A stretch of DNA of 64,000 nt from Perna viridis (Eukaryota): NCBI GenBank assembly GCA_037379345.1, contig CM074512.1:16306001-16370000 (forward strand), read 5' to 3'. Positions within the stretch are counted from its first letter, which is position 1; the number at the start of each line of letters is the position of its first letter. Under the pieces are notes generated by a model that saw only the letters and a program-made list of their open reading frames with translations, was not told the DNA's origin and did not search any database. Of the stretch, positions 13,001 to 46,000 are shown one piece after another. Both the position numbers and the translations under genes were made by a program.

Positions 13001-16000
13001 CATGAACTGTTTAGGAATTAAGGGCCAAAAAGGGGCAACTCTGATTCTTGTACATTCTTATTCTGTGTCAAATGTTTAATTGCAATCCAAATTCAGAGTT
13101 TAATCAAGCTTGAATGATGTGTCCATACTTGTCCCAACCACTCAAGGTTTGACTTCTATAGTTGTACTAAGCTGTGCCCTTTGATGCTTTTTATTGTATA
13201 TTCTTATCAAAATAATATTGTACCAGAGGGAAAAAGTTTTGGTAGTTCAGTTATTGTGGTGACTCCCAAATAGATTAAAGTTGTAGCTATTCTTTATTTA
13301 ATTTTGATATTATTAATATAGTCTGTAATTTACTGTAGTACAAAGGTGTTTGTTTATTATTCAGTACCACTCCCATGTATTGTGTCTGACTGGTCTGAAT
13401 GGTCAGCACCTGATGCTTCTGGAACCAGATACAGAGTTAGATACATGACCAGACCTGCTCTTAATGGTGGTAACGAATGTCCAGATCTTATCCAACTTGG
13501 CAAAGGTTTGTATACTGCCTTAATTACTTAAATGACAGGGTGCTGAGATTACAATAATACAATTCATCACATTTTCAAACCTATCAGATGTATACAATTC
13601 ACTCCTGCTCAACTTGTACATTGTATTCTGTCAGAAGCAATGCATATTTCTGTTATGTGTCTTCTTAAATCATTTAGGATTCACTTCTTGTTTGACCATC
13701 AAAGTCATGTTACCATTTAAATTTTTATCATTTGTTTTTATTTAGGTCTCATTTGAATCATTTGCATGTTGATTGTAGGATATTACTCTTTGTTTATTTT
13801 GAATTGTATTATTTTTATTTCGTTCTGCATTTTATATTATTCAGTACCACTGCCATGTATTGTGTCTGACTGGACTGAATGGTCAGCACCTGATGCTTCT
13901 GGAACCAGATACAGAGTTAGATACATGACCAGACCTGCTCTTAATGGTGGCAAAGAATGTCCAGATCTCATCCAACTTACCAAAGGTAAATTTACTAAAT
14001 GTATAATTCAAAATTCTGATAAAAATTAAGTAAGATGCCAATCATGGACATACAGTGTTGATTTTGAAGACAATATGGCAAGTACACATGTATGAACAGA
14101 AAACAGCATTTCACACGTGAATTTCTGTAATGCATAAAATTGAAACATCATGCATTAATTGAAATGCAGGCAAGGAAATTGATATTACAGTCACAATATT
14201 TGATTGTAAGGTATTTATTAATTTCAAATTATGGCTACAAACCACTTATATCACTTCCCATTAGCTCCAATGCTAATTTCACTAAGTTCAATGTGTTATG
14301 GAGCTTTCACCTTAAGTTTAATCGTTAGAAGATTATATGTATATTCTTAAAGCTGTATGTTTACACTAATAGCTCTGAAATATCTGGTAAGGTTTACTTC
14401 CTTGCAGCGCGAATGACAATGTCTCCTTGAAGACACATCTTAAGATAAGAGTTTAGACCCAAGCAATATCGGTTTCCTATTTTGATGGTTTTGTTCATAT
14501 TATGACCCTGTGGATTAAATTAAAGTGTGGCTCTCTGCAACCACTCATCGCAAGGGCTATATCATATGGTACAATTTCACATTCAGGCGACATCTACTTC
14601 CTGATTTATAACTTCATTGTTTGACCTTATGGCTTTATTGCAAATTTTCAGTAACATTTTTTTCTGCAACTACTTCTCACAGGGTATGCCATAACGGGGA
14701 AAATATTTCAGACCTAAGCAACGTTAAGACTCTGTCAAAACAGTCTTTTTTAATATCATTAACTTATGGTTTTAACACAAAATGTCAGAATTTACCTCTT
14801 TGATCACCTATACTAAGTTCAATATCTCCCAGGTCACATTGGAAACATGCTGTTTAAAATTGTATTTATGGACTGAATGAATTTTGTGGTAGAAATGATT
14901 GTGTTCTCTACTTAGAATTACACTTCTTTTCTCTTCTCAGTACCTCTGCCATGTATTGTATCTGAATGGACCAGATGGTCAGCACCTGATGCTTCTGGAA
15001 CCAGATACAGAGTTAGATATATGACAAGACCTGCTCTTAATGGTGGTAAAGAATGTCCTGATCTCATCCAACTCGGCAAAGGTAAACATTTTATATTTAT
15101 ACTCTAGATGGTTTGATGTTATAAGTTTGAAATGAGAGACTTCTGACAACACAGTCTTCCTAAACTGATCTATATATGAACTTAAGAATCTGTCTAGTAA
15201 AGATAAATTGTGACTATAAATTTATATCACATATTTGTAGTACAACTAATTTGTATTTCTGTAATGGATATTGATTGCATTTCTATTATGACCTAAGTAA
15301 GGTTATATCAAAAGACTTTTTTTTAGTCATAATACATGTACTTTCTCATTATTTCAGTACCACTTCCATGTATTGTATCTGACTGGACTGAATGGTCAGC
15401 ACCTGATGCTTCTGGAACCAGATACAGAGTTAGATACATGACCAGACCTGCTCTTAATGGTGGCAAAGAATGTCCAGATCTCATACAACTTACCAAAGGT
15501 AAAATTATAGGAGTATAAAGTCAAGATAAATAATATATATATATATATGTAGTCTTCAATCTTATTAAAGGTGCTAGTTTAATTTGTGGGTAGACTTAAG
15601 GTTGAAAGGATCTCGTAACAAAAATTGTAATGATCTAATGAACTTGAAAAAAAAATCTTATGTAAAACCAAAATCATGATTTTGTTATCCTTAGTGTTTC
15701 TGCTTTGTGTATTATGTTAATTTTGCTTATGGAGGTAAAACATAGCAATTGTTTCTAATTGAAGAACAAAAAAATTAAACCATTCTAACTGATACTAAAT
15801 CATATGAACATTTTTCTATTTAAATAAAGTTGAAGTTGAAATAAATTTTCTTTTATGGGTTTTTTTAGGCCATTGTACATAAAAAGAAACTTGTTGTTTT
15901 GAAGTTGCCACTAAAGCAAACCTACAAAAGCTTCCTTAGAGTTTTACTTATGTAGTAAATACCTATTCAAGTTATTGCCCTTGAAATGCTTTAGTTTTAC

Positions 16001-19000
16001 TTATGTAGTAAATACCTATTCGAGTTATTGCCCTTGAAATGCTTTAGTTTTACTTATGTAGTAAATACCTATTAGAGTTATTGCCCTTGAAATGCTTTAG
16101 TTTTACTTATGTAGTAAATACCTATTAGAGTTATTGTCCTTGAAATGCATTAGTTTTACATATGTAGTAAATACCTATTAGAGTTATTGCCCTTGAAATG
16201 CCTTATATGACATCTTCAGTTTGTTTACCTTTTTTTATTTTAAAGGATAAGGTACACTTCTGGGTGAATTTGTCCCTTTCTTTTCTGTATACCTGAAAAT
16301 ATATATTGGTTGATATCATACAACAGGTTTCTTTATATGTTGTACATTGAAATTATGCTTAAAGAATCTTCATTGAATTCCTTATAAGAAATGTCAAGTC
16401 GAAAGTTAACAAAAATTTTGTTAACTGTTTTAGAATGTTATGCAACACTGATACAGCCCATTAAAAATCTAATGGATGGTGAAATTTTTTAAACAAGTAT
16501 GCTTCAGAATAAAGAAAAATCAAAGTACTCATGTACTGAATCAATTTATATTGATGGCTTGAATTTTTACGCCTCAAATAACCATCAAATTGCAAAATAT
16601 GGGATAAAAGCAGGGATAAAAGGAAAGTACAGGGATCAAATTCAAATGTATCTAAACACAGGCTTTTTGTTGTAAATGGTTAATATTGAACTCTGATTTT
16701 TTTTTCATTCACCATTCTGATTACGAAGGACATTTAATAAGCACAACAACATTCATGATGCAGTGCACCAGTTAGCAAAATATTCAGTTTTGTTGATGGT
16801 TTACATGGAACACCAAGATGAATTCATACACAACATCCAACATACTGCATAATCGAACTACGAGCTACTAGTTGGCCTTTCCCAGTTCCTAAATTTTCAA
16901 TTCGAAATTCAATTTAAAGATCTTCAGATCAAAACTGTCTGTCAGATCGTTTAAACTTTTGCCACAATCATTGAAATCAACCATGCCTTTAGATACGTTC
17001 CCTCTCAACTAGGTACATCTCTCAGTTGCTAAGCTATATAGCTCAAGTCCTACAAGTTATCACATATACACCTGTGTGTCCTGTGAAAGTGCTTAGTTTC
17101 TGGGCATCTAGTTCTAGAGACATGCACATACATTAACATATAAACACCAAAGCCTTAGAAAATTTCCACAATTATGTCTGATGCAGGAAACACTCACCAT
17201 GCACCTTCCGGTAAATGCATAGAAATAAACAGGTATTGATGAAATTAAAGGTCAACTATTTTTTAATGGGATCGTTGTTAATACAAACCAAACTTTTAAT
17301 CATCATATTTCGTTCACAGTAAAAGTTGTTTATTGGGTTTGTTTATTGGCGTAAATAGCATAGAAATAAATATGACAAATTAGAAATACCTATTAAGTGG
17401 ATATAACTATCTGCATTTGAACATCAATGGGGTATGCCTGTGGGATTATTTTCCTGCAGTAGTGTAAGATAATTTCAGATGCTAACAGGCTTTACAAATC
17501 TAAAGGCTCCGGCGATTGCTATATCAATTCTGATCTTTGATCTAAATTGATAAAAAACATAAGAGTAAATTGGTACAGCTACTAACTCTAGGTATTTCCC
17601 TTTCATCCAAAAAGCAGAAATTTATTTGGATTAAAACTTTGATTTCATAGAATCTTTGGGTCGCTGACTGGCATGCGTACCCCAATCTTTGGGTCGCTGA
17701 GTGGCATGCGTACCCCAATCTTTTGGTCGCTGACTAGCATGCGTACTCCAATCTTTGGGTCGCTGACTGGCATGTGTACCCCAGTCTTTATGGTGTAAAT
17801 TGTTTATATTGATTTAATAATCATTTTGAAAGGGTCATTATATGGTTGAAGTTGACTCTTATTGGAAATCATTGTCATTGACTGGCAGGATATCATACCC
17901 TTTTAATTTTCCTCAAGCATTTAGAGCTTCCTTTCACATTGATTTAATTTACCTTCTAAAACAGTACCACTTCCATGTATTGTGTCTGAATGGACTAGAT
18001 GGTCAGCACCAGATGCTTCTGGAACCAGATATAGAGTTAGATACATGACCAGACCTGCTCTTAATGGTGGAAAGGAATGTCCAGATCTTATCCAACTTGG
18101 CAAAGGTTTGTAATCAGTATGATATTATTATGCTTTTATGGAAATAAGGAAATCGAATGAGCTTACATTTAATTTTGAAAAGCAAATATTGTTAGATATT
18201 TTCTGTATGAAACAATTTATTAACACATACATAATAAGAAACTATGAATTGTGAAATTAGAGGTATATGATATTCATATGGCAAATTAATTTTATTTTGG
18301 ATTTTTCTTGTCTCCTTTTCAAGCAGAAGTGAGAGACCAGCAAAAACAAGGAAAAATTTAAGGATGGCTCAAATTCAAATATAAAAGGACAAATTAAACA
18401 TAATGTGCAGTTTTCTGAGGTGTTAGTCCACAGAGTGGTCAGGTAATATGGTTAAACATTTACTAGTCATGTCATGAGTTTTGTTCATAATGGGTTACAT
18501 TTTAATGAGTTCTCTTATTTACAGTACCACTTCCATGTATTGTGTCTGACTGGACTGAATGGTCAGCACCTGATGCTTCTGGAACCAGATACAGAGTTAG
18601 ATACATGACCAGACCTGCTCTTAATGGTGGAAAAGAATGTCCAGATCTCATCCAACTCACTAAAGGTGTGATTTTGAGCGATTTAAAAAATACATTAGTG
18701 GTGTTACCTCCATTAACAAAAAAAAACTATTTTTGACTGACTGATAGGGCAATAGTCAATAGAATATTTGTTGGACATTGTTCTTCCTTACTTATAAAAA
18801 TATGGCTGTATTTCTGAAATAAATTTTGGAGGATGTTGTAAACGATGAACTTCAAATTGTAGATTAGTGAAAATTAGTAAGCTAATGCTATACTTAAAGT
18901 GTGTCAGTGGTTTCTGATATATACAAATAATTTTCTGCTATGCCTCTCTCCTGCAATAGTTTACATGAAATGAAACAAAAACATTTAAATGGTTTTATTA

Positions 19001-22000
19001 CAATACTGTAAGGTAGATAAATTTCATTGAGTACTAATTTTAATAGTCTGTCTATATACTACGAAAGATTGTCCATAAAATATTAACTATGGACTTTAGT
19101 ACCTAGTGCATCACTTGGCATCTGCCAAAATTTTTCAGATTACTTTTTCCTCATAGTCACTACATTTTACACCTGCTAAAATGACCCACATTATAATATG
19201 TAGATGTACTGTTCAACCCTTGTATATTTGAGCCTTTATTGCCTAGAAACAAGCATGATTTTTTTATCTCATCTTTTGCCTTTTTGAGTACTGAAATTTG
19301 TGTCAGTGTCTGAATGATTACTTGATATTTTATAGATTCACTTTCATTTTTTTCTTAGTAACTGTGATTGGAAACATTTTAGAACCAGGAGCAATAATTT
19401 TTTTTTAATTTCTTAAAAATAAAATGCATTTTGTTTGTTTTAACCTTAAGTACCACTTCCATGTATTGTGTCTGAATGGACCAGATGGTCAGCTCCTGAT
19501 GCTTCTGGAACCAGATACAGAGTTAGATATATGACCAGACCTGCTCTTAATGGTGGAAAAGAATGTCCAGATCTCATTCAACTTGGAAAAGGTAAAGAAT
19601 TGCTACTTTTGTATATATTAATGCATTTTATGTGAATTATGTAGCTAAACTAGCTTGAACAGCTGTGCTTCATGATTTGTGGCTACCTTTGTTCAATATA
19701 AGCTGAAATATTCTTTGAAACTTTCTATCATCTAGTTTGTCAGTACCAATATGGGTATATTTTTATTTAGACATCAAAGAAATTCTTTTTTTATGACACT
19801 AAAATCTAGGTTACGGTATTGGCCTCTTTATTCTTTGATATATAATTCTGTAACCAGTCTGCTTCAGTCAATCAACATATAGATCTGTTGCATTAAAAAG
19901 TCAAAATGACTATACACTAAGAAATTTAATTGTGAATGCAAGTGTAAAACACATTGTTCTGTTCTTTAAATTGAGGCTTATTATGTATACCTTATAGTAC
20001 CATTGCCATGTATTGTGATATAAGTAAAGTTATATCAAAAGACCTTTTTAGTCATGATACATGTACTTTCTCATTTCAGTACCACTTCCATGTATTGTGT
20101 CTGACTGGACTCAATGGTCAGCACCTGATGCTTCTGGTACCAGATACAGAGTTAGATACATGACAAGACCTGCTCTAAATGGTGGAAAAGAATGTCCAGA
20201 TCTTATCCAACTGACTAAAGGTTAGTATCCTGATTTTTCATACAATTGAAAAAAGAATTGTGGTTGTAAAATGGTATGGCACTGTCCTTGCCAGCAGTGG
20301 TGTTATTATTTATTGGAATTAGAAAAAGGAACCTATATGGTGAAACCCCACAAATGCACCATATATAGGGGCCAAAAAAGAGTTAGAAACAAGCTTAATC
20401 CTGGTTTCTGGTTCATAACTTGAATAAAAGTGTTTCGATATATATGAAAATGTACCATGATGATCCACACCACAAAAGGAAGGCTGAGATTGATTTTGGG
20501 GGTTATGACTGAAACTGTTTACTTAGAGGCAAAAATAATAAGGGCCAGAAATCAGCATTTTCCTGATGTTTGCACAATAACTTGAGTAAGAGTTTGTGGA
20601 TCTCTAAGAATTCATATTTTGTATTGAATAGCAGGGTTATTGCTTTTACTGTTTAGGAATGGGGGGAAATGGGGGGTGTTAAAATAATCATTTTTGCCAC
20701 TTTGTTAAAATTTCTAAATTCTTTTGTTTAAGTGCAAATTTTTATGTTCTTTGACCACTTTTATCCTGGTCAGGCAATCGAACTGTGAAGGATTTTATTT
20801 AAATGATTAAAAAAGATTTCCTACTCTTCAAATTTTAATCTGTACAATTTCCTTAGAGCATAAGGAAAATAATTTGCATCCATGGTTTAAGTAGTGGTCA
20901 CAAGAATATATTCTCTATTTTCAGTACCTTTGCCATGTATTGTTTCTGACTGGACTGAATGGAGTAAACCAGATGCCACAGGAACCAGATATAGAGTTAG
21001 ATACATGACCAGACCAGCTCTCAATGGTGGAAAAGAATGTCCAGATCTTATTCAAATGGGCAGAGGTAATGAATTACTTGTTCATCCTTTGTGATTGATT
21101 GGTGGACTACAAACTAGGAAATTTTTAGTACAATGTACTTAATTGTTTTACTGGTACATGTAGTTATAATGATGTGAAACTAAAATGGTTGAGAGACAAA
21201 ATTTCCCTTGTATATAAGAAATGATAAATCATCCTGACACCTTATTTCATGAAATGATTTGCTGTTTGTCCATTCTTATGCCTTACTCCTCTTTATTCAA
21301 AGATATCTGTGAATAGTGAATATGCCATTTAAAAAGAAAACATTTTTATTCACATTTGTTTTATTTTTTATTTGCTTTTCATTTGATATTCAGTACCATT
21401 GCCATGTATTATGAGTGAATGGACCCCATGGACCAAACCAGATGCTACTGGAACTATTTATAGATACAGATATGTCCTTAGACCAGCTCTTAATAAGGGC
21501 AAAGAGTGTGAAGATCTCATGCAACTTAAAAAAGGTAATTTAAATTAGATACACTATGAGTAATTAAAGAGTAATTAAGGGAATTGAAATTCTTGTGGAA
21601 ATCAAAAAATTGTAATCCACTGACGAAGACCACACAAGGAAAACAGCCACACACAACAAAGAACATGAAATAATTAAAATAATATGTACAAAGTAACAAA
21701 AGTAAATGACTAACTTGGACTCCACTAAAAAACTGACCAGGTGCACTGGTAGAGCATCCTCTGTAAATCACTTAATAAACATTATGTTCATAGAATAAGT
21801 TCTAATTAATCTGAAATCCTCCGCATACATTAATAATAGCCAATGCAATATAGCATACAATTACATTATTTAAAAAAATGACAAACAAGAAAACCTAAAT
21901 CTTTGAAACCACATGCGATGAAGTTAAAATTCATAAAAAGTACTAAAAATTACCAGTCTGACATTCTGTGTACAAATTATGATATACAAGTTTCAGTCAC

Positions 22001-25000
22001 CTCTTAGTCCACACTAAATTATGAATGTAGTTTGCATGGAGAGATGTTTACATTTTTTAAGGTTGTATATTTAGATGGAAGAATGTTCCTTGTTATAATA
22101 CAGGTATGTCAGTATCTTTTCAGTCGGTACTGTACATAAACATTTTCTTCATGAGCATTTCATCAACTACTAGTAGTAATTACTGTTTGCTATAAAATGT
22201 TAAAATTGCCATCATAAAACTTTCATATTTCTTTTCTAGTACCACTGCCATGTCTGATGTCTGACTGGACTAAATGGACTCAGCCTGATGCCTCAGGAAC
22301 TATCTACAGATACAGATACATGATCAGACCTTCTCTTAATGGTGGAAAAGAATGTGAAGACCTCCTTCAACTTAAGAAAGGTATTATTATTTTTTCATTT
22401 AAAGGAAAATATAATTCATCATTTTTATATGGAAAATCTGCATTTAATGTGGTTTTGATAGAAAATTTTATGTTTTAATTGTCAACAGAAAATATGAAAT
22501 TTGTGAATTGATTTATATACAAATAACCTGAAATCAATGATTCCTTATTGACTGAATTATTCATGGTGAGTTTTTATCACCTACTAGTGAGTGCAAACCA
22601 CCAATAATTTCTTCACACATATAGAAAGAGAAATGAAAATTGCAAGTTTGAAATGAAAGATATCAAACATTTATTGTTGAAGTTAGGTTGGGGCCAGAAG
22701 ATTGAATAAATGAATGTGAAATTGAAAGAGGTTGACATTTTGAAAGAAATTTTTAGAAAAAAGGTAGTATTTTTAATTAAAGCAAATGATTTCTTCGATT
22801 CAGCATCTATATTAAGTTGAAAATCACATTTTTCCATTATTATTATTCTAGTACCACTGCCATGTCTGATGTCTGACTGGACTAAATGGACTCAGCCTGA
22901 TGCCTCAGGAACTATCTACAGATACAGATATGTTATCAGACCTTCACTCAATGGTGGCAAGGAGTGTGAAGACCTCCTTCAACTCAAGAAAGGTAAGATT
23001 TACCACTTTAATTGTCTTTATCTGCAAAATGAGGGAGGGCCATGGTATTAGTATTAGTATCTGTCTGCCCATCCATTTGTTCACAACACCTCGTGGATAC
23101 ATCTCTCAAGAAACCACAGATTGTTTCAATATTTTGTAGGATGTTTTGTTATGAAGTGTTTGACTTAAATAATACACCACCATTTTGATTCAACAAATTA
23201 TGTAGGAGTTAGACAATTTTTAACATCTCTCCACACAAGAAAATCTTGTGAAACCAACTCCTCTGAAACTACTGGACAGATGGCTTCCATATTTTGTCGG
23301 ATAAGTTGTTATGAAATGTCAATATTTATACGTAGGAGTTATGGGACTTGATTAACTTGAAGTAATTTGAAGTAATCTTGTACCAGATGATTGTTTGTTT
23401 GTTGGGTTTTAACGTCCGAGCAGCAATATTTCAGCTTTATTCAGATGAGTGTACCAGATGATGATTTAATTATTTTTAAATCCATATAAAGCAAACATAT
23501 ATATTTGTTTTTGATTTATGCCAGCTTATTGGGCAACAAACCCTTCTATACAGGAGGAGGGGATGTAAGTCTATTTAGTAGTTTAAAGTAGGTTAAAATG
23601 AATGAAATGTGTAACAAATTCGGTTTTTTTTTAGTACCACTTCCATGTATTGTGTCTGACTGGACCACATGGTCAGCACCTGATGCTTCTGGAACCAGAT
23701 ATAGAGTTAGATATACAGTCAGACCTGCCCTCAATGGTGGCAAAGAATGTCCAGATCTCATCCAGCTTGGCAAAGGTTTGTGTCTAATTGTTCAGAATGA
23801 ATTGACAAAAAAGTGTGTGTTCATGTATGTTACAACTCACTTCAATTAATATAGTTAGTCTACAATAACTTGAAAGAATTTTAATTTCACATTATTTTTC
23901 TGAAATAGACACAAAAATTAAATGAAGTTTAACCAACAAACAACTCATATAAATGTATTTACCTATTTACTGTTTTAGTTTTTGGTTGTTTCATATGAAT
24001 ATTTTATACCAGTGTTTATGCCTACTTAAGAATAATACTTCCTGATGTGAAATTAAGATACAAATTTGAATGTTTACTAATGATCAGTTTCTTTACTGTG
24101 TCTACAGTATAAAACTTATATTACAGTACCACTCCCATGTATTGTGTCTGACTGGACCGAATGGTCAGCACCTGATGCTTCTGGAACCAGATACAGAGTT
24201 AGATATATGACCAGACCAGCTCTTAATGGTGGAAAAGAATGTCCAGATCTCATCCAACTCACAAAAGGTAAATAAAAACTGAAGTTTTTTCTACTATCAT
24301 AAAGTAGCAAAATGAAATGTGACCCCATTAGTTACTAAGTTTTTCAACTGTTTGAAATACCATGTCCAGTTGTTCATACTACATTATCCTCTGTACTGGA
24401 GCTGGTGTTGTTTTTTTGTGAATGTATAATCAGATAGCAGTAGTTTTCTTATTCTCACCACATTCTTTGGAGGTATAGAAATATTTAATGTATCTACACT
24501 TTTCTGTCATAAGTATGTAGCATTTTGGGATAAAACAATTCAATACAATTTTGTTAGTTGTAGTACATGGTTTCCAGTGACTTATCAGTCATTTAAATTT
24601 TGAAGCAAAATGATTTTTTTCTTTAGTACCACTCCCATGTATTGTGTCTGAATGGACCAGATGGTCTGCACCTGATGCTTCTGGAACCAGATACAGAGTT
24701 AGATACATGACCAGACCTGCTCTTAATGGTGGCAAAGAATGTCCAGATCTCATCCAACTTGGAAAAGGTGTGTAAAATCATTAAAACCTGATTTTAGAAT
24801 CTAAATTTTAGTGGTTTGGTTTAATTGGAATCTTTGTCAAAGAAACATGTTTCCATTAAATTCCTTTGTAAAGATTTTAGATAAATGTTAACATATTTAA
24901 CATGGAGAAGTCTGACATAGGGCTTAGCTAAAGTAGTAGAACTCAAATTTTGTTGTTAATAAACTGTCTTGAAAAATATTACAGTACCACTCCCATGTAT

Positions 25001-28000
25001 TGTGTCTGACTGGACTGAATGGTCAGCACCAGATGCTTCTGGAACCAGATACAGAGTTAGATACATGACAAGACCTGCTCTTAATGGTGGTAAAGAATGT
25101 CCAGATCTCATCCAACTCACTAAAGGTATATAAGTATGAAAAAAGTGGGTTTTTTTTTCAGATTTCTTTTTTTTTTCAATGAAAATACCAGATTGCTATA
25201 GATTTAAGGTGTTGATCCTACTGCTTAGTTATGTTTAAGACAGGAAACTAAATTCAATTTGTGTTGCTTTGTTTCATTTTGGTTATAAATTAAATTGTAT
25301 GTTATTTGATATGAAGGACTCTGAAGTAGTTAGTATAACTTTTTAACCAGGCATCTTTTACTTATCATTTCTTAATGTATTAACATTTTCAGTATCTAAA
25401 TTTGATGAAAATTTATTTGTATGTGAACATTACAAATGCAAATATAAGTGACAAATGTATGTTCAAGGTTCATAATAAGTATTTTTTCTTGTTGTCTTTG
25501 ATAAAAATAGAGAAGCACAATTGACTGTTAATACAAAAAACCTCAACAGAACTTGTTCAATTATTTTCCAGTACCACTGCCATGTATTGTGTCTGAATGG
25601 ACTACATGGTCAGCTCCTGATGCTTCTGGAACCAGATACAGAGTTAGATATATGACCAGACCTGCTCTTAACGGTGGTAAAGAATGTCCAGATCTCATCC
25701 AACTTGGCAAAGGTAAAATTTTGAAAAAAATAGACATACAAATTTTAAGTGAAGCTTTATTTTTGTTCATTATGTTTATATATGTAATGAAATAGTTATG
25801 AATTTATTTCACATTAATTGTGTTAAACGTATACTGAATGTATATTTTATGCACAGCATCTGAAAGTTCTAAGCAGGTCTTTAAAGAAGTTGGTTTGGTA
25901 AGGGCAAAATTTGGCCTCAAATTCAAAGTCTACATGAAAAAAATTTTATGTTGTTTTTTAATGTGTTTATAGTTGATTTGATTGGTTTATGGTGATTCTT
26001 TGAACATATACAGTCATATATACCCTTCAAACTTGGCTAAGATTGGGAAGATCTGTTAAAAAGACTGAAAAACACCAAATTTTGTGCCATTTTTCACTCT
26101 TTTAACAATGGCCACATGCATGTTGACTCTCATATTTCATATATGTTGTGTATTATTGTCAGTTACAACTTGTGTAAAATATCTGGAGTCAACAGATGTG
26201 TGGCCACTTCTGTTCCACACAAAAACCATCTTAAAAATTGCGGAATGTTAAAAGAAAGGTTTTTGTAAAAGATAAATGCATACTGTTTTTTCTAGAATAA
26301 CATCATAAATCTTGACAAAAACATCTTATATTCAGTGTTTGTGACCATTTTACTATTCTGCTACTATGTAGAATTCAGCTTTAATCAAATTTTTTAAAAT
26401 GCCCTAATTATGAGGCAAAAAGGGGTCCTTACCAAACTTTCTCAAAGTGAGGTAATCAGAGAAATACATAATGGCTTTAGAAAGTGTTGAGAGAATGATT
26501 TATCGAGTCTTTTTTTTGTCATGATATTTTCTCATTATTTCAGTACCATTGCCATGTATTGTGTCTGACTGGACTGAATGGTCAGCACCAGATGCTTCTG
26601 GAACCAGATATAGAGTTAGATACATGACCAGACCTGCTCTCAATGGTGGAAAAGAATGCCCAGATCTCATCCAACTCACCAAAGGTTTGTATTATCTCAA
26701 GCCTGTTCGCTCTAAGTAAATATTTTAGTGCATTTATTGTTTTATTGAAAAATTAAGTGTATGCTCTTTTAAAATTGCTACTTGGCACTGAAAGATTCAG
26801 AATCTTGTCAGAATCAGATTATAGCCTGGCACTTGTAGTTTTCATTACGGTTGGCTCACCGATTTTCTTGGTTGCTTTTTGTCCCACGCCCTTCATGAAT
26901 GCAGGCAGTATAGAATTAGGCTTTCCGTCAATCTGTCTGTCCGAAATTGGTTTCCAGAGCATAACTTTAAAATGCCTTCATAAAATTTCATTAAACTTGG
27001 ACAGTTGAAGGCTTTTGAGGTAGGTAAGACACCTATTGATTTTGAAGTCAGTAGGTTAAAGGTCAAGGTTACATGGACTATATGAAATAGTTTTGGAGTT
27101 GAAATTTGGTTTCCAGAGTGTAACTTTTTAATGCCTTCATAAAATTTCACCAAACTGGGACAGTTGAAGGCTTATGGGGTAAGGATGACACCTATTGACT
27201 CTGAGGTCAGTAGGCCAAAGGTCAAGGTCACACAGACTTAACAAAATATAATTTTGGGGTGTAAATTGGTTTCCAGTTAGTAACTTTTGAATGCCTTCAT
27301 AGAGTTTCACCAAACTTGGGTAGTTGAAGGCTTATGGGTAAGGAGGACACCTTGAATTTGAGGTCAGTATGTTGAAGGTCAAGGTCACACAGACTTAACA
27401 AAATATAATTTGGGGGGGGGGAATTAGTTTCTGGAGCATTACTTTTGAACGCCTTCATAGAATTTCATCAAACTTGGACAGTTGAAGGCTTATGCTGAAG
27501 GAAATAATATTCTGTGCAATTTTACTTTTGTTGCAAGGGGACCCTGGAGCACTGCTCTTGTTATATCTGTATCTGAAAGATTAAGTATCAAGAATATTAT
27601 AATTATGTCATTGATTTCTGTAAAATATTATATGCAATCTTAGAGCCTTAAACAATTTTATTTTCGTACCAAGTTTCTCTTATGTAAATAATCTCTTTTT
27701 GTAGTACCACTACCATGTATTGTATCTGAATGGACTAGATGGTCAGCACCTGATGCTTCTGGAACCAGATACAGAGTCAGATACATGACCAGACCTGCTC
27801 TTAATGGTGGTAAAGAATGTCCAGATCTCATCCAACTTGGCAAAGGTGTGTTCATGTCATAAGGGCTTAATTTCTATCTGTTTGTTATAAATGAAAGTTA
27901 ACTTGAGTTAACTTTGTATCTGAAAAAAAAATATGAAGAACTTTTACAATACATTCCACATTTTGTGATGGTCTTCAAAAAATATGTCAAATATTAGCTT

Positions 28001-34000: not shown

Positions 34001-37000
34001 TATCCATCTCGTTTCTTCCTTTGGTGGTTCATTGAAACTAATGAACTAGTATTTACTTTTAGATTGTAGGAAAACTTTCTTTCACTGTATACTGCTACTA
34101 AATCATTTATTAATGACTGTGTAAATCATATAAGTACGAACTACAAGTACTGTGGTTCTTTAAAACAGTGTATTTGGGTTTATTTTATTGATTCCTTGTG
34201 GGGTCCAATCACTTTGAAAAGGCTATTATATGCTTATTTGTCCATATTTTGCACATTCCCAAAAGGGGAGTTAAATCCTCTGGAAACAGCCATAGATCTG
34301 CCACTGAGTTTCCAAAAATTAAGGAGAAATTATCCAAATTACTTTCATACTTTAGTACCCTGATCATTAAAACATAAAAAAAGGCATAAGCTAAAGTAAA
34401 ACTATATAATAATTATTAGTATTCTTTCACCTTCAGTACCACTTCCATGTATTGTGTCTGACTGGTCTGAATGGTCAGCACCTGATGCTTCTGGAACCAG
34501 ATACAGAGTTAGATACATGACCAGACCTGCTCTTAATGGTGGAAAAGAATGTCCAGATCTCATACAATTGGGAAGAGGTATTTTTGATAGATTCATGATT
34601 TTGAGGTGAAATCAAGAGTAACCTCAGGTAAAGCAATTGTTACTATTTCTATATGTTGGAAAAAAAGAATATACAAATGTACATTAAAATTGTATGTTTG
34701 TCAGAATTCTCCAGATTATACAGTGTGAAATCCAAATTTTTTAAAACTAATAGAATAATAAAACATCCAGTTAATAGTATGTTGTAATAGTATTAATCTG
34801 TCAAATGAACATATTGGCATGGTATCCATTTTCACAATTTTGAGAAATTTATTAGCATTATATAGTGTTGAAAAGCAATTTTATTTGTACTATGTTTTTG
34901 TGCTTTTCTGGCTGCCAGGAAAATTGATACATCTACAGTAACTTAAATAATGAGGCCAAGCAAAGAAACTTTGAGAAAGATAGCAATGAAAACATAAAGA
35001 AACCGAATAAAAAACAAACACAAAAAATGAATGTAGTTAAGCAGGCAGGATCCATCAAAAACTAGGAACATTCTCTGGTTGTTTTTTTTTTATTTTTTGA
35101 AATACTTTTTTTTTTCAGAAATGATGGTAACTTTTTTACGTAAAATCTGTAAAACAAAGAAGCTTAAGATACTTTGTAATTTTTGGATGTAGTATTTGAA
35201 CCCTATTTCATAAAACATTTGAGATCTTTGTTTTTATGTGACATAATTGAGTTGAGGAACGAACTTTCAAAGAAAAAAAAAATGAAAGTGAGATTTTTAA
35301 TGAAACCTATTGCAAACACTGATTAGTAAATATTGACAAGGTTATGACAAAGTTTTACCAAGTCTTATCTGGCTATTGGAACTAGATTAAATATGCTTTA
35401 TATTGGTGTCTTATCATAAATTGTGTGTCATCCCAATAAATCAATCTACATAGTTTGCCTTCTAACAGATTTCTCAAACCTGCCAATTTTTCAGTACCAC
35501 TTCCATGTATTGTATCTGACTGGTCTGAATGGTCAGCACCTGATGCTTCTGGAACCAGATACAGAGTTAGGTACATGACCAGACCTGCTCTTAACAAAGG
35601 CAAAGAATGTCCAGATCTTATACAACTCACCAAGGGTAAGGATAAGCTGTTTGAGGCAGCACTAAATTTATTTTAAATTTAGCAATAAATAAAACATAAA
35701 AACCTGTCCATTGAATATTTATTTGTAGTCTGCAATATAATGTAAAGATTTAAGGCTGTATAAGTATAGAAATACAGAAAAAAATAGAAGGGAAACATTT
35801 GGGTAAGGTTGAATTAAATGTGTTGTATCAGTAGACCAACTGTTGCTTGGGGTGTTTAGGTCTTTTTATCAGGAACCCCAAGGTGACAATGGTTTTATGT
35901 TCCATCTATCCATAAGCTCATCAATTGGTATCTTTCAGTGTGCCAGTCTTTTTACACCCCTGCTTTCAGACATAGTGATATATTATTATCAAGATTTCTG
36001 TCTGTCCTTAACACTTTTGTTTTCTTATTGTGAGTTGACGATGGATGTAGCAATATACTTCTGCTATCCAAAATTGAGTCTTTTTAAAGTGGACCTTAGG
36101 TATTGCTCCAGTGACATTTTAAAGAATCAAAATGTTGGATCAACCCATGGATATTTTCTTTGTAGTGATATCTAAATGACTGAACATTTCGTTTTGAATT
36201 TTCGTTAGATAAGATGAATAATGACTGAGTTATTATAACCCTGCTTTGCAGGTGGTATATATTGAGCATAATGTCTATCCACAATTTTTTCGTTATTTTT
36301 TTCTCTGCAACTACTTTTCACACCCACTTGATAGGCTTGCAATTTCATCTGATTGGATTTTAGACTTAAATGACTTTCCTGTTTGATGACTGTTTATATT
36401 TGACCATTAGCTTATTGGGTTGGAGGAGAGGTTGTGCTTTCTTTAATAAGTTTTGCTCACAGTTGTCTTGTTTTTTATTTTTTTATTTTTTTTTTGAAAA
36501 GGTAATTATGTATTGAAATCTGTAATACTGAATCTTATTTATGTTTCATGATGTTATCATGACTCTAGATTCAATGCCATTTATATTTGTACTTTATAGT
36601 TAAACTTCCATGTATTGTATCTGAATGGACCACATGGTCAGCTCCTGATGCAACTGGAACCAGATTCAGAGTTAGATATATGACAAGACCTGCTCTTAAT
36701 GGTGGAAAAGAATGTCCAGATCTCATCCAACTTGGCAAAGGTAGTTTTAAGATACATTTACTATTTTAAGTTCATAGAAAGTGTTGTTAAAAGAAGCAAT
36801 TGTAACATTATTATAAACAGGAATATGTAGATGTGCATGAAGGAATATAGTTACTGTCTGAGGACTTCAAAGGGAGATAATGGAGCTTAAAGTCTATACA
36901 TTTTACTCCATCATTTGAAATGTGGGATATTTTTTTTGTTAGAGTAATTCTACTGGTTTTTGAGATGTTCCCAATACAATTTGTATGATCTAACAGTAGA

Positions 37001-40000
37001 ACTTCTAAAACCAAGATTTTATATATTAAAACTTTAAAGTAGTTTATCAAAGAAAAATTAGGAGACATTTCGGATAAAAATTTATAAGGAATTTACAATA
37101 AAGTTAATTTGTTTTGAATTAGAAATTTAGCTTGATGGCTAACTATGGAATTCTATTTTGATCAATATGAGGGCACATGTGGTGGATATCAGTCTTCATA
37201 TAAAACTGACGTAGAGATCATGCATTATTTGATATTAAGAAAATGAAGGTTTTGAACACTTAAATGCAAATTTCGCAATGACTTCAGATATTGTTAATGG
37301 CATCATGTTCATTACCTTTTGAAAAAAAATCACAATTTGGAGAATAAGGTACTGATATCTACATTGACTAGGTACACATTTTGAGATATACAGTCATTAT
37401 TGTCCATTTATATTTCACTATAGCATGAAATTAGTTTTGCCTTTTGCTGATGTTTGACTTGTTTTTCAGTACCACTGCCATGTATTGTGTCTGACTGGAC
37501 TGAATGGTCAGCACCTGATGCTTCTGGAACCAGATACAGAGTTAGATACATGACAAGACCTGCTCTTAATGGTGGACAAGAATGTCCAGATCTCATCCAA
37601 CTCACTAAAGGTATGTGATTACTGCATGCTTATTTAATGTACTAGTATGTACTCAATACAAACATTTTTTTTTCTCCATTTGCTTGTAGATGAAATATTT
37701 AGTGTTACTACTCCAAAGATAGAATATTTAAATGTAACTACTCTGAAGATAGAATTAAGAGGTTTTTAACTAACTTTTAGGATGAAGTTTTGAATTAGTA
37801 TTTACATGGTTAAATTTAAATCAACGCTTTTGGTCATATTTTAATGCCAATTTTGATTCGACAAATTTTACAGGAGTTATGGGACTTACACATTTTTTGG
37901 AGCTGCAGTGGACATATGGCTACATGTAGCAATCTTGTTTTATTAGCATATTTACCAACAGTTCTAGTTGAATCCAATTCAAATGACTTGTGATATAAAA
38001 GCTGTAATACATCATCAAAATTTCTTTTATTGCCAAAGTAAAATGTACAACAATTTAGAATGCCTTTTGTAACATATTTTTCATTTCCTTGTCAGTTAAA
38101 CTACCATGTATTGTATCTGAATGGACAAGATGGTCAGCACCTGATGCTTCTGGAACCAGATACAGAGTTAGATACATGACAAGACCTGCTCTTAATGGTG
38201 GTAAAGAATGTCCAGATCTCATCCAACTTGGCAAAGGTATGCATGATTATTTATTATGATAATTTTAGTAGTTAATTCAAAAAATGCTTTGTATATTGAT
38301 CTGTTAATCATTTAAAGTCCTCAAACCTAGATAGATAATTGCAGTCCTTGCTAGAAATACTAGTTACTCACATTTCTTGGTTTTTTTATCTGCCTTGCAG
38401 TTTTTAACAGTAATCTACATTATAGTATCAGCTTCAGGTAGATTATACATAATATTTTTGTTGTAATCGCAACTCTTCCGAAACCCCTCAAGGGATCGTG
38501 ATGAGATTTTATAGGAAAGTTGGGTATAATATGTAGATGTGCATAAAGGAATTTAATTACTGTTTGATGATTCCAAAGGGAGATGATCCAAATTAAGTGT
38601 TTTACATGTAATTTTATATAATGGTTGGGTATCAGGTGTAGGTATGTATGAAGGAATGTAATTACTGTTTGAGCACTTGAAAGGGAGGTAATCCAACCAG
38701 TGATTTACATTGAAGTCCTTTTGATGAGTGTGTATTCTCTTAGTGTGCCTGATCACAGTATTTCTAATTAGTCTATATATACTTTCTTGTTTTTCTTATT
38801 TAAAAAAAAAAATGGGAGTCATCAAAATTATTTCCGTGTTTGCAGAAATTGAAATTACCTATACATTTCAATGAGAAAAAAAAGCCTGTCAGTTCTTTCC
38901 ACATTGAAAGCTTTTTTTCAAAATAATTTTTGTGAGTTTGCAAATTAAGTTCTTTTGACAAAACATTGCCTGTCCAAAATGTGAATTTATTAACAGAGTT
39001 TAAAGATGCTTGGAAATATCTATGATCATTAAAACATAAAAAAACGCATAATCTTAATTAAAACTATATTATAATTATTAGTATTCTTTCACCTTCAGTA
39101 CCACTTCCATGTATTGTGTCTGACTGGTCCGAATGGTCAGCGCCTGATGCTTCTGGAACCAGATACAGAGTTAGATACATGACAAGACCTGCCCTTAATG
39201 GTGGTGAAGAATGTCCAGATCTCATCCAACTTGGCAAAGGTATCCATGATTAATTATTATAATAATTTTAGTCGTTAATAAAAAAAAAATGCTTTGTATA
39301 TGGATCTGGTAATCATTCAAAGTCCTCAAAGTTCTTAATGGTGGCAAAGAATCTCCAGATCTAATCCAACTTATCAAAGGTAAATTTGTTTGTTTGACAA
39401 TAGCAAAAAATTAGATTTCTTTAATGGTCAGTCTCATAAATAGCTTGGTTTCCAAGTTGTATTGTGATTGGTCAAAACAAAGAAGGTTTTTAGTGCGTGA
39501 AAAGGTTGTTGTTTTTTTATACCCCTACTTGAAAAGTGGAGGGTGTATAGTGATGGAGGTGTCTGTCCATCCTTCCATCCTTTTGTCAATCTTTCTATTA
39601 AACGAAGGGGACCCATCTCTTATCTGTTACTCCTCCTAAACGGAGTTAAATGAAACTTTCACAGAATATTTGTTATATGTTCCCTTTGTGCACCTCCTAT
39701 TTTAGATTTTGATCTGAATGAATTTTGAGGTTTCACATAACAAAACATTGACTTTGTCATTTGTTAATATGGGGACGTGGGGACCTTTCTATTATCCTTC
39801 ACTCCTCCTATACCACTGAGTGGAATTAAATGAAACTCTGAAAGAATCTTTATGACGTGTTCCCATTGTGCGCAACCTATTTTAGATTTTGATCCAAAAC
39901 CAATCTGAGTGTTTTACATAACAAAACATGGACTTCATCATTTGTGAATATGGGGACCTGGGAGACCAATCACTTATCCATTACTCCTCCTATACCACTG

Positions 40001-43000
40001 AATGGAACTGAATGAAACTTTCACAGAATTTTCATTTTATATTCCCATTATGCACCTTCAATTTTAGATTTTGATTAGAAACTAATCAAGGGTTTCTCAG
40101 TGCAAAACATGGACTTACTCATTTGTGGATATGGGGACATAGGGGCCCATCACTTATCTGTTACGCCTCCTATATCACTGAATGAAACTTAATGAAACTT
40201 TCACAGACCTTTTATTATATATTTATGAACTTGATGAATATATCTCAATTCATTTAATTTTTTGGGGATCAATAGATTATGGACTTGAAAACTAAAATTG
40301 CCTTTCCATATTAAAAAAAAAATCAGGCATAGCCATCCATTTAATTTTGTTGAAAAGCACAATAGATGGAGTAATGACATTTTGCTCATTTAAAATTATC
40401 TTTTTTGAAATTTAAAAATCTTATCGATATTAGAAACATTTTTTTCACCATACCAAATAGTACAACAGTAATTAAAAAGAGGAAAAATTACATTATCACT
40501 TTCCTCTTCAGTGCAACTTCCATGCATTGTTTCTGACTGGACAACATGGTCAGCACCCGATGCTTCTGGAACCAGATACAGAGTAAGATACATGACCAGA
40601 CCTGCTCTCAATGGTGGAAAGGAATGTCCAGATCTCATCCAACTCTCCAAAGGTATTTTCTATATTTCCCATGAAATGAATTTTACCAGCAATTCCAAGT
40701 GATTGCCCAGTATCCAGGGCATTAGGTATATGTTTGTGCTTACTAAGTTTCTTACATTATGATTAGTTCTCCTTCAAGGAAACACACCAAATCAGCATCT
40801 GATTTAATGTTTACATTTCTCAAATTACTAACCAAGATTTTTATCATCATCACAGGGAAAAAAGTGGGAGGTGTTTATAGGAATCACCCAGTCTGTCTGT
40901 CCCTTAGTTCGTCAACGTTTCTTATAAGGGCAACTGCTCCTAAACTGTGCAAGAAATGTTGAGAACGTCACTGGAAACAACACAATGCATTATTGCATTT
41001 AATTGTCAATATTGATGTTGGCTATAACGTTTGTCCGAGTAGAAGTTCCATATTGTTTTTAAAATGAATGTGTTTAATGAAAGAACCATCAATCGAAATC
41101 TAGGGGTGTTCATGAATTTTCATAAAAGATTGGGCATTATAAGTAGATGTGACATTTAATGTTTTACCATATCTGTTACTCGACTGCATCTTGGAGACAA
41201 GCCATACACCCAGAATTATGTGTTATGAAGCACTTGTCCATTCTAAAATACCTAATTTTGGTTTAATGATAAATGACAGAATAAATTTTGGAACCAATTA
41301 AAAAATGTTTTATTTAAATTTTTTAATGAATGCTATTGCCATGTGTTTCAGAAAGAATGTATATATCTGTATTATTTGATAGAAAAAAAATGGTTGAAAT
41401 TTTACTCACTTTGTTGTATCAAATAAGCTATTTCAAGTTATTGTTTTGTGTTTACTATATTAAAGGTGATAACTGAATAGGTGCCTATTTCATGTGTGTG
41501 ACGAACTTTATACTTTAAATTTTGATAAAGTATATATGGTCATTGACGATGAAATTGAATTCAATTGAGAGAAAAGAATATAACTAATTTAAACTACAAC
41601 ATCTTTCATTACATTCATTATTTTGTCTACTTTTTACTTTGTAGTGCAACTTCCATGTATTGTGTCTGACTGGTCTGAATGGTCAGCACCTGATGCTTCT
41701 GGAACCAGATACAGAGTAAGATACATGACCAGACCTGCTCTTAATGGTGGAAAAGAATGTCCAGATCTCATCCAACTCACTAAAGGTACCAGTTCATTAG
41801 GCAGAATTATTTTCTAAAAAGCATCTCCATTTGATATTAACAAAAAATATAGTTTTTGACTGCCTGTCCTTTTGATAAAGGTTAAAATAATCTGAAGGTT
41901 TCAAAATTAGTTTTATTACCAGCAGTAAAAACACCTTCTCTTCTGTATTTTGATAAATAACAAATGGAAGTGAGACAAACTTGCTCAACACAGTTAAACC
42001 TGTCAAAATGGAACCTTTTAGCTGGAGGGCTATGTTCTTAGTTTAGGTGCATGTTTAGTTAACACATTAAAATGCTTTAAAACTATTTTCAAGGGAATTT
42101 AAAAGATGTCTTATTGAGACAGGGTATCTTGTTTATTCAGGGTTACATTTAGACAGACTTTACTGTCATTTAATACTGGGAGAGATTGATATAATTGATT
42201 CCATATTTTTCTTTCCCTTTTCAGTACCACTACCTTGCATTGTGTCCGATTGGACCACATGGTCAGCACCTGATGCTTCTGGAACCAGATATAGAGTTAG
42301 ATACATGACCAGACCTGCTCTTAATGGTGGCAAAGAATGTCCAGATCTTATACAACTTTCTAAAGGTAATTGAATATTTCCACTGTGTTAGGTATATACT
42401 GTTATTGTTCATAGATACGTAAGTTCATCTGTCCATTGAATTTGCCTATACTTGACCTTGTGAACCCATCATGGAAATGGTATGAAATTTTATATGCAGG
42501 TAATACCATTATCCTTGTCAGTCACACATCAGCTTATTTTTGTCGGCATTGCCAGCTTTAAAGCATTGATATTATAGGCAGGATAAGCTGTGGACATATT
42601 TGTGTGACCAGTGATATTATAGGCAGGATAAGCTGTGGACATATTTGTGTGACCAGTTCTTTATAAGGCTTTGCTGCTCATTAATTTTTTGTTTTTGCTT
42701 CTTAATTATTCTGTATGTTCTTTATTTGTTCTTACTTTTAAGTTTTTGACTGGTAACTGTTGATTTCATTTTTAATAGTACAACACAAATATTCCTCCTA
42801 AATAGTTTTGATATTTAAAGCCATTTAACCATCTAATTGCCTCTACATCTTACACAAGCAAAAGAATTTCTAAAGTTTTAATTTTTTTTACATTCTTTCT
42901 TCAGTTAAATTGCCATGTATTGTGTCTGACTGGTCTGAATGGTCAGCACCAGATGCTTCTGGAACCAGATACAGAGTTAGATACATGACAAGACCTGCTC

Positions 43001-46000
43001 TTAATGGTGGACAAGAATGTCCAGATCTCATCCAACTTGGCAAAGGTATCATAGACTCTTCCTTATTAATGTATTGATATTTAAAAAAAAGAATTGAATT
43101 ACAGTGTAACGGTATTCAATTAGTTATCTTATCTAGATTAATATACACTAATTGCTTGCTGAGTAAGATTTTCCATTCAGCTATTTAATTTCATCAATTC
43201 TTTAAATATATACCTTAATATTTGCAAGGTTCTTTCTATGCTATATATGTGAGGTTTGAGGAATTGTGAAAATAGAAGCTTGCCCAATTTAAGTCCAAAT
43301 GTTTTACTCATGATTATTTCAATTCTGTTAAATCTGAAGACACGGAAAATAAAAACATAAAAAATTTAATATCTCTATTCTTAGAGCAAATTGCAAAATT
43401 TGGCACCCACGAAAATTACCCCCTATATGGTATTACTGGAAATATTATGTGAGTTTGAACTACTACTTCAAACAGATTTTAGATCTGATAATTGACATCC
43501 ATACTATTATACTCCCTCAAAACAAAGTTTGGGGGGGGGTATATAAATATCACCCCATCTATCCATCCATCTGTCATTTCGTCTGCCTGTTCACATTTTT
43601 TGATGAAATTTTAATAGGAAGGCTGGGTATCATATGTAGATGTGCATGAAGGAATGTAATTACTGTGGGAAGACTCCAAAGGGAGATAATCCAAATCAAG
43701 ATTTTTACATATTTAAACTTTTTAAGTTTTTACGTGCAACTCCTCCTAAACCGCTGAAGGGATTTTAATGAAATTTTATAGGACGGTTGGGTATCATATG
43801 TTCATGATGTAAGTGTGTATTAAGGAATATAGTTACTGTTGGATAAAGCCAAAAGGAGATATTTCAACAAGTGTTTTATATGGAAGTCCATTTGAAGGTA
43901 TTTTGTTTGTGAGCTTGTTTGTAATAAGTTGTTTTTCTAGTTGTCCCTAATGAAAATAGAGAGGCACAATGAGCTGTTTATAATCTCAACAGAACTAGTT
44001 CATTTATTTTTTAGTACAACTTCCATGTATTGTATCTGATTGGACCACTTGGTCAGCTCCTGATGCTTCTGGAACCAGATACAGAGTTAGATACATGACC
44101 AGACCTGCTCTTAATGGTGGCAAAGAATGCCCAGATCTCATCCAACTTACTAAAGGTAGGATTGGATATTGAGTTCATGTGTATTTTTTTTTGTTAGAGG
44201 AGCTTAAAGATGGATATCTGGGGTTTGTCATGAATCAGAATTTGACAGCATAATCTTTATCCTGTAAATATGTGAATGTGTAAAGTGATATTTTATCATC
44301 TGAAATTATGGCGAACTTTACCTAATCTTAGGGGAGGTAATTTGATAATTATTCACTTTTATTTTTCTTGTAGATTTTTAAAATTGCAGAAGTACCCATT
44401 ATAGTATTATTTGTTCTCAGGAACAACAGATTGAATTCACTTAATAATTGGTTAGGGTCCCACACTATGCTTACATACTTCAGCATGTCTATTACCAAAT
44501 CAAATTAAGTTATTCAAGTTGTAAATGCAGTTGAATAATTGCTTGTATTCAGATTAACAATGTCACACATTTTGATTCATAACCTTATTCAATACAGATT
44601 TTTTTTTTATAACTTACAGTTAAACTACCATGTATTGTGTCTGACTGGTCTGAATGGTCTGCACCTGATGCTACAGGAACCAGATACAGAGTTAGATACA
44701 TGACTAGACCTGCCCTTAATGGTGGCAATGAATGTCCAGATCTTATCCAACTCACTAAAGGTCTGTATTAAACTGCTGTAAGACCTGTAATAATATATAA
44801 GATGTAGTGTCAACATACAGTTCTTGAATTTGGTATGATTAAAAGACAAAGTTCATTATCATGTTAAAATTCTGGTCTATTTTCTGCTGAATCTTACAGA
44901 ATTTTGGTCATTTAGAATAAACATAAATCATAACCAATTAATGGTATGAATTGTCAACCAGCACATGTTTGATATTTACCTGATTCAATGCTTTAATTAT
45001 TTTACGATACCTGTAACAGTTCCACTGCCATGTATTGTGTCTGACTGGACTGAATGGAGTAAACCAGACGCCACAGGAAGTACATTTAGATGGAGATTTG
45101 TCACTAGGCCTTCTCTTAATGGTGGTAAAGAATGTCCTGATCTTATACAGTCTAGAAAAGGTATGCTGGCATACCATGCAGAAAGAGATCAAAGCATTTT
45201 AATGTTAAATATGATGGGTGTTTGATTGCCGACAGTTTGCAATTACAAAGCTTGAAAACTTTCAATTTGAAAAAGGAAAACAAAATAAAATAAATTACAC
45301 TCATTTAACATACACAATGAATTTGCTTTCTCTCCATTCAATATTTATACAATAAATTTAATGAGTTCTTGAGTGCCTCATCAACTCAGCTTGAATAAGA
45401 AACCAATATATTAACCATATCACTGCTAAAGATTACATTGGTAGGGTACAAATATGTCACGAGGACAAAGATTCCTGAAATTTCTTGGTCCTTCATATGT
45501 TTACTTTTAAGTGATATTCTCTGTAAGAATCAGGCAGTGGTAAAAAAAAAACACACACACGTCTTTCTATGAAATCTTATTCAGTATATTATCTGAAATG
45601 CAGAAATGCCATTCAGTAATTATATGAAATGCCTTGCACCCATATGGTCGTGTGTTTTCTGTGATTCATTACTTTGAATTTTGCCTGATTCTTACAGATT
45701 CCAGCACTTAATTACTTTAAAAAAAAAAGTATATACAGGTACAATAAACCTCTAAAAAAAGTATATACATGTACAATAAACCTCTGAAAAATCTTGTTAA
45801 AAAAAAAGTTATATTTCAAGAATTAGAAAGTAGAAAATCATATTATTGGATTACTTTTGATTAATTATTCATTTTTGCTCATTTTATTACAATTGCTCTT
45901 TGATTGTTTAATATGTCTTTTATTTAATGATATTTATTGTGTTACTTTTACTTTAAAGTTTTATGTTTCATCAGCATTTAGTCGGAAATTTATTTTTATT

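Follow-up and report, generated by a model that had tools for sequence, protein, structure and literature searches.

Within a 64,000-nt stretch of the genome of the mussel Perna viridis (GenBank assembly GCA_037379345.1, contig CM074512.1, positions 16,306,001 to 16,370,000 of the forward strand), here called the window, lie the 3' two-thirds of a giant gene of ~95 kb whose protein is a long series of TSP1-spondin modules, encoded almost throughout as one module per exon. Many of these exons are near-identical, silent sites included, and the introns between them are with few exceptions unrelated. We consider it likely that the exons are kept alike by ectopic gene conversion at the level of DNA, that is, by break repair templated on a paralogue. 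As expected under conversion, silent-site identity of paralogous exons exceeds the identity of their flanks, and it does so in bounded tracts.

A profile search found 118 internal module exons, all on the + strand; 113 are 141 nt long and five 144 nt. All 118 have AG/GT ends, phase 1-1 and an open frame, and each encodes a single TSP1-spondin module; the first of the 119 modules lies inside exon 1. The array runs from ~34 kb upstream of the window to position 57138. Its parts in the window, numbered from the window's first letter, are as follows.

864..57138, + strand: TSP1-spondin module exons, 75 wholly in the window (two of 144 nt); 43 more start upstream
13365..44760, + strand: central, most homogenised block, with 39 exons and 38 introns of 217-2466 nt
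45020..50656, + strand: 3' block of alternating exon types, with near-identical pairs at lag 2

Near-identical exons and their introns

The preliminary description of this DNA had singled out two exon pairs, and its counts are exact. Exons 13845-13985 and 18525-18665 differ at 4 of 141 nt, all synonymous, and exons 48175-48315 and 48871-49011 differ at 2 nt, both synonymous. Among the 6,328 pairs of 141-nt exons, 4 are at no more than 2 differences, 17 at no more than 4 and 88 at no more than 8. Exon similarity peaks in the centre of the array and falls off at both ends; the proportions of synonymous and non-synonymous differences (pS and pN) are 0.27 and 0.05 among 42 core-type exons, and 0.65 and 0.41 among 16 terminal exons. 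The lag-2 pairs of the 3' block are 46123/47269 (4 nt), 48175/48871 (2 nt) and 48569/49379 (1 nt, with the next exon at 27). Upstream of the window, the pair -21561/-15752 is 1 nt apart, and the third-nearest exon is 21 away. The many private states common to such type-specific pairs support conversion. Close pairs occur at lags of 1-41 exons, and a collinear close neighbour pair exists in only 10 of 38 cases, so block duplication is not the source of most of them. An assembly or polishing artefact was considered and rejected. DNA runs of other samples contain 0.73-0.83 of the words of 44000-53600, and contigs from them, each with 0-9 letters that differ, span exon-intron-exon stretches within 45900-50300.

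When flanks are aligned with the splice sites as anchors, neither side reaches a score of 10 in 82 of the 88 pairs at no more than 8 differences, nor in any of 150 distant pairs; one side reaches it in 6 of the 88 and both sides in none. For the 28 pairs at no more than 5 differences, 3 of 56 comparisons of whole flanking introns exceed z = 4. Two of the three come from the same pair, 4020-4339/21066-21393, and the third is a gappy alignment. By simulation, this test detects 27 of 30 introns at 30% substitution plus indels and 5 of 30 at 40%. An all-against-all intron BLAST gave matches in 48 of 6,786 pairs, mostly internal repeats or at chance level, and a reversed-sequence control gave 34 matches. 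In the 3' block, introns are unalignable beyond 15-20 splice-proximal nt, though the exons differ at 1-4 nt. The earlier view that the flanking introns are unrelated holds for the 82 close pairs and gives way to one-sided matches in the other six; likewise, identity does usually end at the splice sites, as had been noted, with exceptions that run 60-130 nt into the intron. The unrelated flanks and the whole-intron test bear out the suggestion of short-tract conversion from exon to exon, and the introns were not found to be homologous at an exon-like divergence.

Intron length over the whole array is 127-3745 nt, with a median of 446. The range of about 0.14 to 2.5 kb given previously agrees at its upper end with the introns of 13365-44760, and its lower end of 0.14 kb lies outside their range. 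Tandem repeats within introns at 15940-16205 (unit of 53 bp), 17651-17789 (33 bp), 26944-27494 (159 bp) and 39647-40223 (180 bp) are responsible for part of the spread in length.

Near-identical exons between dissimilar introns might also result if unequal crossing over had recently duplicated exons with their introns and the introns had then turned over very fast. The lag-2 alternation in the 3' block is what a dimer duplication would leave, one copied tract includes its intron, in which ~300 nt contain 8 gap events, and the introns contain satellites and dispersed repeats; moreover, rapid intron turnover is known in Argiope MaSp2 genes (PMC9779670). Nevertheless, we find this account highly improbable. 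The introns are only ~0.7% different between the reference and run X3, exon pairs 1-2 nt apart have both introns unalignable under a test that detects 30% divergence, and for 28 of 38 close pairs there is no collinear neighbour. A paralogous TSP1-VWA gene with the same exon layout is located on the same chromosome (G000:C2 ~60.156-60.186 Mb, minus strand, L013-L016), where at least 17 single-module exons are all strongly diverged from each other. Two of its exons and their intron are also found as a recent inverted copy at G000:C2 ~60.309-60.310 Mb (L021-L022), with 1,458 of 1,482 positions matching. That copy kept its intron, and it therefore shows what a recent duplication looks like in this genome. 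Old duplication, as distinct from recent, is the likely origin of the array.

Copied intron tracts and orphan exon stubs

When all 6,903 exon pairs were scanned on both sides, six intron tracts emerged that match on one side only; they are 60-130 nt long, ~80-99% identical and anchored at a splice site (scores 41-123.5). The same scan picked up both ends of an intron shared in full. The cases described here are the following.

10968..11098, + strand: one-sided donor-side tract, agreeing with 28949-29080 at 130 of 131 aligned bases, with an abrupt end
47706..47768, + strand: one-sided acceptor-side tract, agreeing with 51026-51088 at 62 of 63 bases, although 42 nt differ between the exons
19996..20079, + strand: orphan 5' stub and copied intron end; the stub, 19996-20018, is AG plus the first 21 exon bases
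39023..39381, + strand: mosaic exon 39099-39239 with flanks, having two sources and an orphan 3' stub
20925..21534, + strand: two-exon tract with its whole intervening intron, shared with 3879-4480; the outer introns are unrelated

The exons belonging to the 10968/28949 tract have 9 differences, 8 of them within the first 85 nt. Shared intron edges could in principle be dispersed repeats, and this was ruled out for the 10968/28949 and 47706/51026 tracts, each of which has only its 2 matches genome-wide.

Two of the tracts adjoin a remnant of exon. Starting 3 nt after stub 19996-20018, 58 nt reproduce the end of the intron that precedes exon 15358, with 55 matches, 3 mismatches and 2 gaps, and lead directly into exon 20080. 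The stub has the top score of any 5' stub, 22.5 bits compared to 13.1 for the best antisense match. Exon 39099-39239 is a mosaic. The 76 nt upstream of it have 71 positions in common with the flank of exon 34437, and its 3' part together with ~89 nt of donor intron resembles exon 38096 (78 matches, 9 mismatches). At most 4 nt after this copied tract lies an orphan decayed stub, 39333-39381, consisting of exon positions 95-141 plus GT, which has the top 3'-stub score (20.1 bits, against 11.4 for the best antisense match). Both stubs adjoin the far end of a copied tract and both are the top genome-strand matches; apart from these two, no exon fragments scattered in introns rose above the antisense or flank background. 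The same order is found in L012, a foreign locus from another organism that was the one locus obtained from 44 pattern matches in a metagenome scan: exon 704-844 is followed by 58 nt of intron and then by a decayed 3' stub with GT at 903-941. L012 also has an inverted partial exon (1-117) and an exon, 2531-2631, in which similarity stops after ~100 nt. The stubs of the mussel gene have kept their splice sites, giving an extra acceptor 82 nt upstream and an extra donor 140 nt downstream of their respective exons, the use of which would shift the frame.

These footprints can be understood if a break in one repeat exon is repaired by copying another repeat exon of the same gene. Copying would mostly halt at the splice sites, the 141-nt exons being the sole homology left between long-diverged units of an array that presumably arose by old duplications and whose introns have since diverged beyond alignment. 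With both broken ends resolving inside the exon homology, no trace would be left in the introns. If one end instead resolved without homology, by one-sided invasion or template switch, the edge of the donor's intron would be copied, and the recipient's own exon end would be left behind as a stub. The order of exon, intron tract and stub would then exist because one end copied past the splice site of the paralogue and the other was joined without homology. Ends anchored in two successive exons would bring the intervening intron along, as may have happened at 20925-21534. Belmaaza and Chartrand reportedly described such one-sided invasion or template-switch repair in 1994, with one end copying past the homology and the other joining without it; there the break was induced, whereas in the mussel gene, a germline gene, we infer the process from footprints left in nature. 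Purifying selection at the protein level may hold exon similarity above what exchange requires. The conversion loop would thereby sustain itself in the centre of the array, and the terminal exons would have escaped from it.

The preliminary description had also raised the possibility of an RNA or cDNA template. The gene's own intron-less mRNA or its cDNA would give exon-confined tracts, in keeping with identity that mostly ends within a few bases of the splice sites, and one RNA-like run is rich in the transcript. We think such a template very unlikely. The six one-sided tracts and the one whole intron are copied intron DNA, stubs lie at tract ends, 0 of the 117 inter-module introns have been lost, and there are no fused exons among the 118. 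Furthermore, the depth of raw RNA reads from three other libraries is mostly <3 on the gene except at a dispersed repeat, and expression is therefore tissue-limited. Nor is RNA needed, as the limits of homology predict the same exon boundary. In a mixed version, the common exon-confined tracts would come from the spliced transcript through germline RNA- or cDNA-templated repair, and only the minority that enter introns would be templated by DNA. If true, this would be transcript-templated homogenisation, natural and heritable, over more than 100 exons of one animal gene, but we can give it only slight credence.

Silent sites, codon use and mosaic tests

A different explanation, which the preliminary description had offered next to conversion, is that constraint at the nucleotide level froze old duplicates while their introns drifted. 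The constraint might lie in codon choice or in splice enhancers for 118 symmetric exons. Codon use in the gene is indeed skewed, with AGA for 393 of 433 Arg and TGT for 209 of 228 Cys; foreign exons have position-specific codons in common with the mussel exons, and mosaic tests confined to third positions are not significant (see below). The rates of change point the other way. The two-exon tract serves as an internal clock: its intron has 21 substitutions in 293 aligned bases (7.2%) plus 8 gaps, and in its exons 12.8% of synonymous sites have changed (7.5 of 58.8), as have 1.5 of 217 replacement sites. Polymorphism in run X3 over 45900-50300 consists of 5 exon single-nucleotide polymorphisms (SNPs), all synonymous, in at most 318 silent sites, 0 non-synonymous SNPs, and 20 listed intron SNPs in 2,991 bases. 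Synonymous sites change at least as fast as introns, and codon constraint therefore does not appear to explain the pattern.

Codon use itself leads in the same direction. In 47 core exons, where a residue is shared its codon differs in 0.22 of comparisons; the codon use of the gene as a whole would lead one to expect 0.48. Which codon is preferred varies with the position in the module, for example CCA in 46 of 47 at Pro3 and CCT in 38 of 47 at Pro15. Constraint cannot yield private identity within exon types, copied intron edges or stubs. The similarity is also absent from the paralogous TSP1-VWA gene, which is not homogenised: 17 modules were found there, and the closest pair of 141-nt exons is 61 nt apart. 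For these reasons constraint, whether of codons or of enhancers, is disfavoured and seems to us improbable as the cause of the pattern. Separately, GC-biased conversion was tried and rejected, as there is no rise in the core; third-position GC of conserved codons is 0.12 in the core and 0.22 at the ends.

Formal mosaic tests lend modest support to conversion. A Sawyer-type test on all sites is significant for 5 of 4,749 pairs, with p=0.01 in the core, and a pairwise homoplasy index (PHI)-type test reaches p<0.001 in the 3' block only. The foreign exons provide a further comparison. A tree was built from 117 exons, 113 from the mussel gene and 4 foreign, excluding exon 1 and the five exons of 144 nt. 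The 42 core exons come together in it with no foreign exon among them, though 141 columns resolve little. At the protein level, 16 of 18 distinct foreign modules, some of them likely alleles, are nearer another foreign module than any module of the window. Genome and viral collections yielded no foreign DNA of this kind (0 of 7 and 0 of 16).

A number of observations weigh against conversion, or at least against relying on it alone. The PHI-type test gives p=0.041 for all 113 exons, 0.075-0.115 for the core and 0.33 upstream, and the Sawyer-type test on third positions alone gives p=0.15 and 0.61. The L012 exons keep many of the position-specific codons, with pS to the core of 0.37-0.49 and best single pairs of 0.25-0.31. 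Set beside the pS within the core, this sharing of codons implies that part of the core similarity may be old or constrained, and some constraint or slow turnover of a consensus is possible. The tree does not unite the four foreign exons in one clade, and support for the core group is only 84/89. Four of the six one-sided tracts have no clear stub, a weak possible 4-nt stub upstream of the 34361 tract having been left out of the count. The X3 comparison amounts to 5 sites in one run (Fisher p=0.085), and its SNP count excludes 10 rows dropped as likely paralogue contigs (46889, 47740 and eight at 49723-49749, seven of which match exon 50516, beyond the stretch compared) as well as 6 more rows. 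Finally, neither the direction of transfer (non-reciprocity) nor a germline origin was observed, the other individuals being represented by collapsed contigs.

The encoded protein and comparison with known systems

The joined frame of the gene is 18,096 nt with a single stop, at its end, and predicts a protein of 6,031 aa and ~677 kDa. The domain order is signal peptide, Gly/Ser/Tyr-rich head, 119 TSP1-spondin modules and C-terminal VWA domain. The TSP1_spondin profile is matched by 4 of 4 modules scanned (E 1.3e-5 to 5.5e-11), one of the four being above the curated cut-off. The parts on either side of the array are as follows.

L004:4099-4843, in the neighbouring upstream stretch: exon 1, with signal peptide, Gly/Ser/Tyr-rich head and first module
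57891..58265, + strand: VWA exon 1, with a DASGS (DxSxS) motif (Pfam VWA, E 3.7e-12), spliced in RNA contigs
59325..59647, + strand: VWA exon 2 and stop codon, the end of the joined frame

Exon 1 begins with a hydrophobic leader, taken by eye as the signal peptide. The head that follows is rich in His/Tyr/Ser/Gly/Ala with SYGAAKG-like repeats, a composition that makes it a candidate metal-binding or cross-linking end. Contigs of run X12, which like X18 is presumed to be RNA, contain consecutive exon joints of the form GT..AG from 50114 to 59323; 13365-41400 is outside the coverage, and joints between core exons are ambiguous. X12 also has two apparent skip joints (47407-48869 and 47909-48871, with sides of 24 and 28 nt), each of which could belong to any of several near-identical exon starts. 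A 50-bp tandem repeat at 58254-58737 (9.7 copies, 98%) starts inside the end of VWA exon 1. The last bases of that exon and its donor site are thus repeated about ten times, and the first donor is the one used in the RNA contigs. An intronic dispersed repeat at 55656-55786 has a heavy pile-up of RNA reads on both strands with loose ends, SINE-like by behaviour.

A protein search limited to sequences of at most 2000 aa found no full-length homologue at E<=0.001; a second search with the same limit returned only 13 single-exon fragments, and a further one VWA relatives without names. The domain order matches that of the byssal TSP-1 of Pinctada fucata, which has a signal peptide, a GGSS-rich region, 24 TSP-1 repeats and a vWFA domain, at 191.6 kDa (PMC4597212). 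The mussel protein has in common with it the signal peptide, a low-complexity Gly/Ser/Tyr-rich head, the TSP1 repeats and a C-terminal vWFA with DXSXS, but has 119 modules and a predicted ~677 kDa. By this analogy, the gene likely encodes a protein of the byssus, the attachment thread. A THSD7B-like gene of P. viridis, perhaps the gene of the window and perhaps another, is listed at 759 transcripts per million in foot and 0.33 in gonad (PMC7971044). The gene model given here is a full one for a likely major byssus protein of the mussel, which short-read assemblies would collapse.

Conversion among tandem exons is already known. Here the mechanism is most likely ectopic gene conversion of the ordinary kind, at work in a gene of unusual architecture. 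The case contributes its scale, controls that come built in, and stubs in which one-sided events are recorded. A literature search that excluded most subscription journals found no report of exon-only homogenisation of this gene. The array is an unusually clean natural record of 141-nt islands of homology sustaining ectopic conversion in an animal germline. As a system it offers 118 replicate exons, an unconverted paralogue that serves as a control, a clock of its own and, where ends were joined without homology, footprints that can be dated.

Three known systems invite comparison. The variable exons of clustered protocadherins undergo gene conversion, with homogenisation of synonymous sites over part of their length (PMC4978886), and so are likewise tandem paralogous exons homogenised at silent sites. 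Each of those large exons makes a separate isoform, however, whereas the 141-nt mussel exons are spliced serially (shown for the 3' part) and their tracts end at splice sites instead of spanning part of a large exon. The tandem exon arrays of Dscam resemble the mussel gene in having dozens of short paralogous exons with short introns, but they are spliced in a mutually exclusive manner with no detectable gene conversion (PMC3236188), unlike the homogenised exons joined in series between 50114 and 59323 in run X12.

The silk genes are also giant genes for secreted fibres with many repeat exons and intragenic homogenisation. Their introns are homogenised too, being 97.6% identical within Argiope MaSp2 genes (PMC9779670) and 96.6% within type in one webspinner e-fibroin (10.64898/2026.08.07.743568). 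These are repeats of exon and intron as an ensemble, unlike the mussel array with its unrelated introns and BLAST matches in so few intron pairs. The mussel gene is in this respect the mirror image of the silk genes, where introns homogenise along with exons, and it suggests a route by which a repeat protein of ~6,000 residues might be kept uniform without long stretches of identity that would drive changes in copy number.

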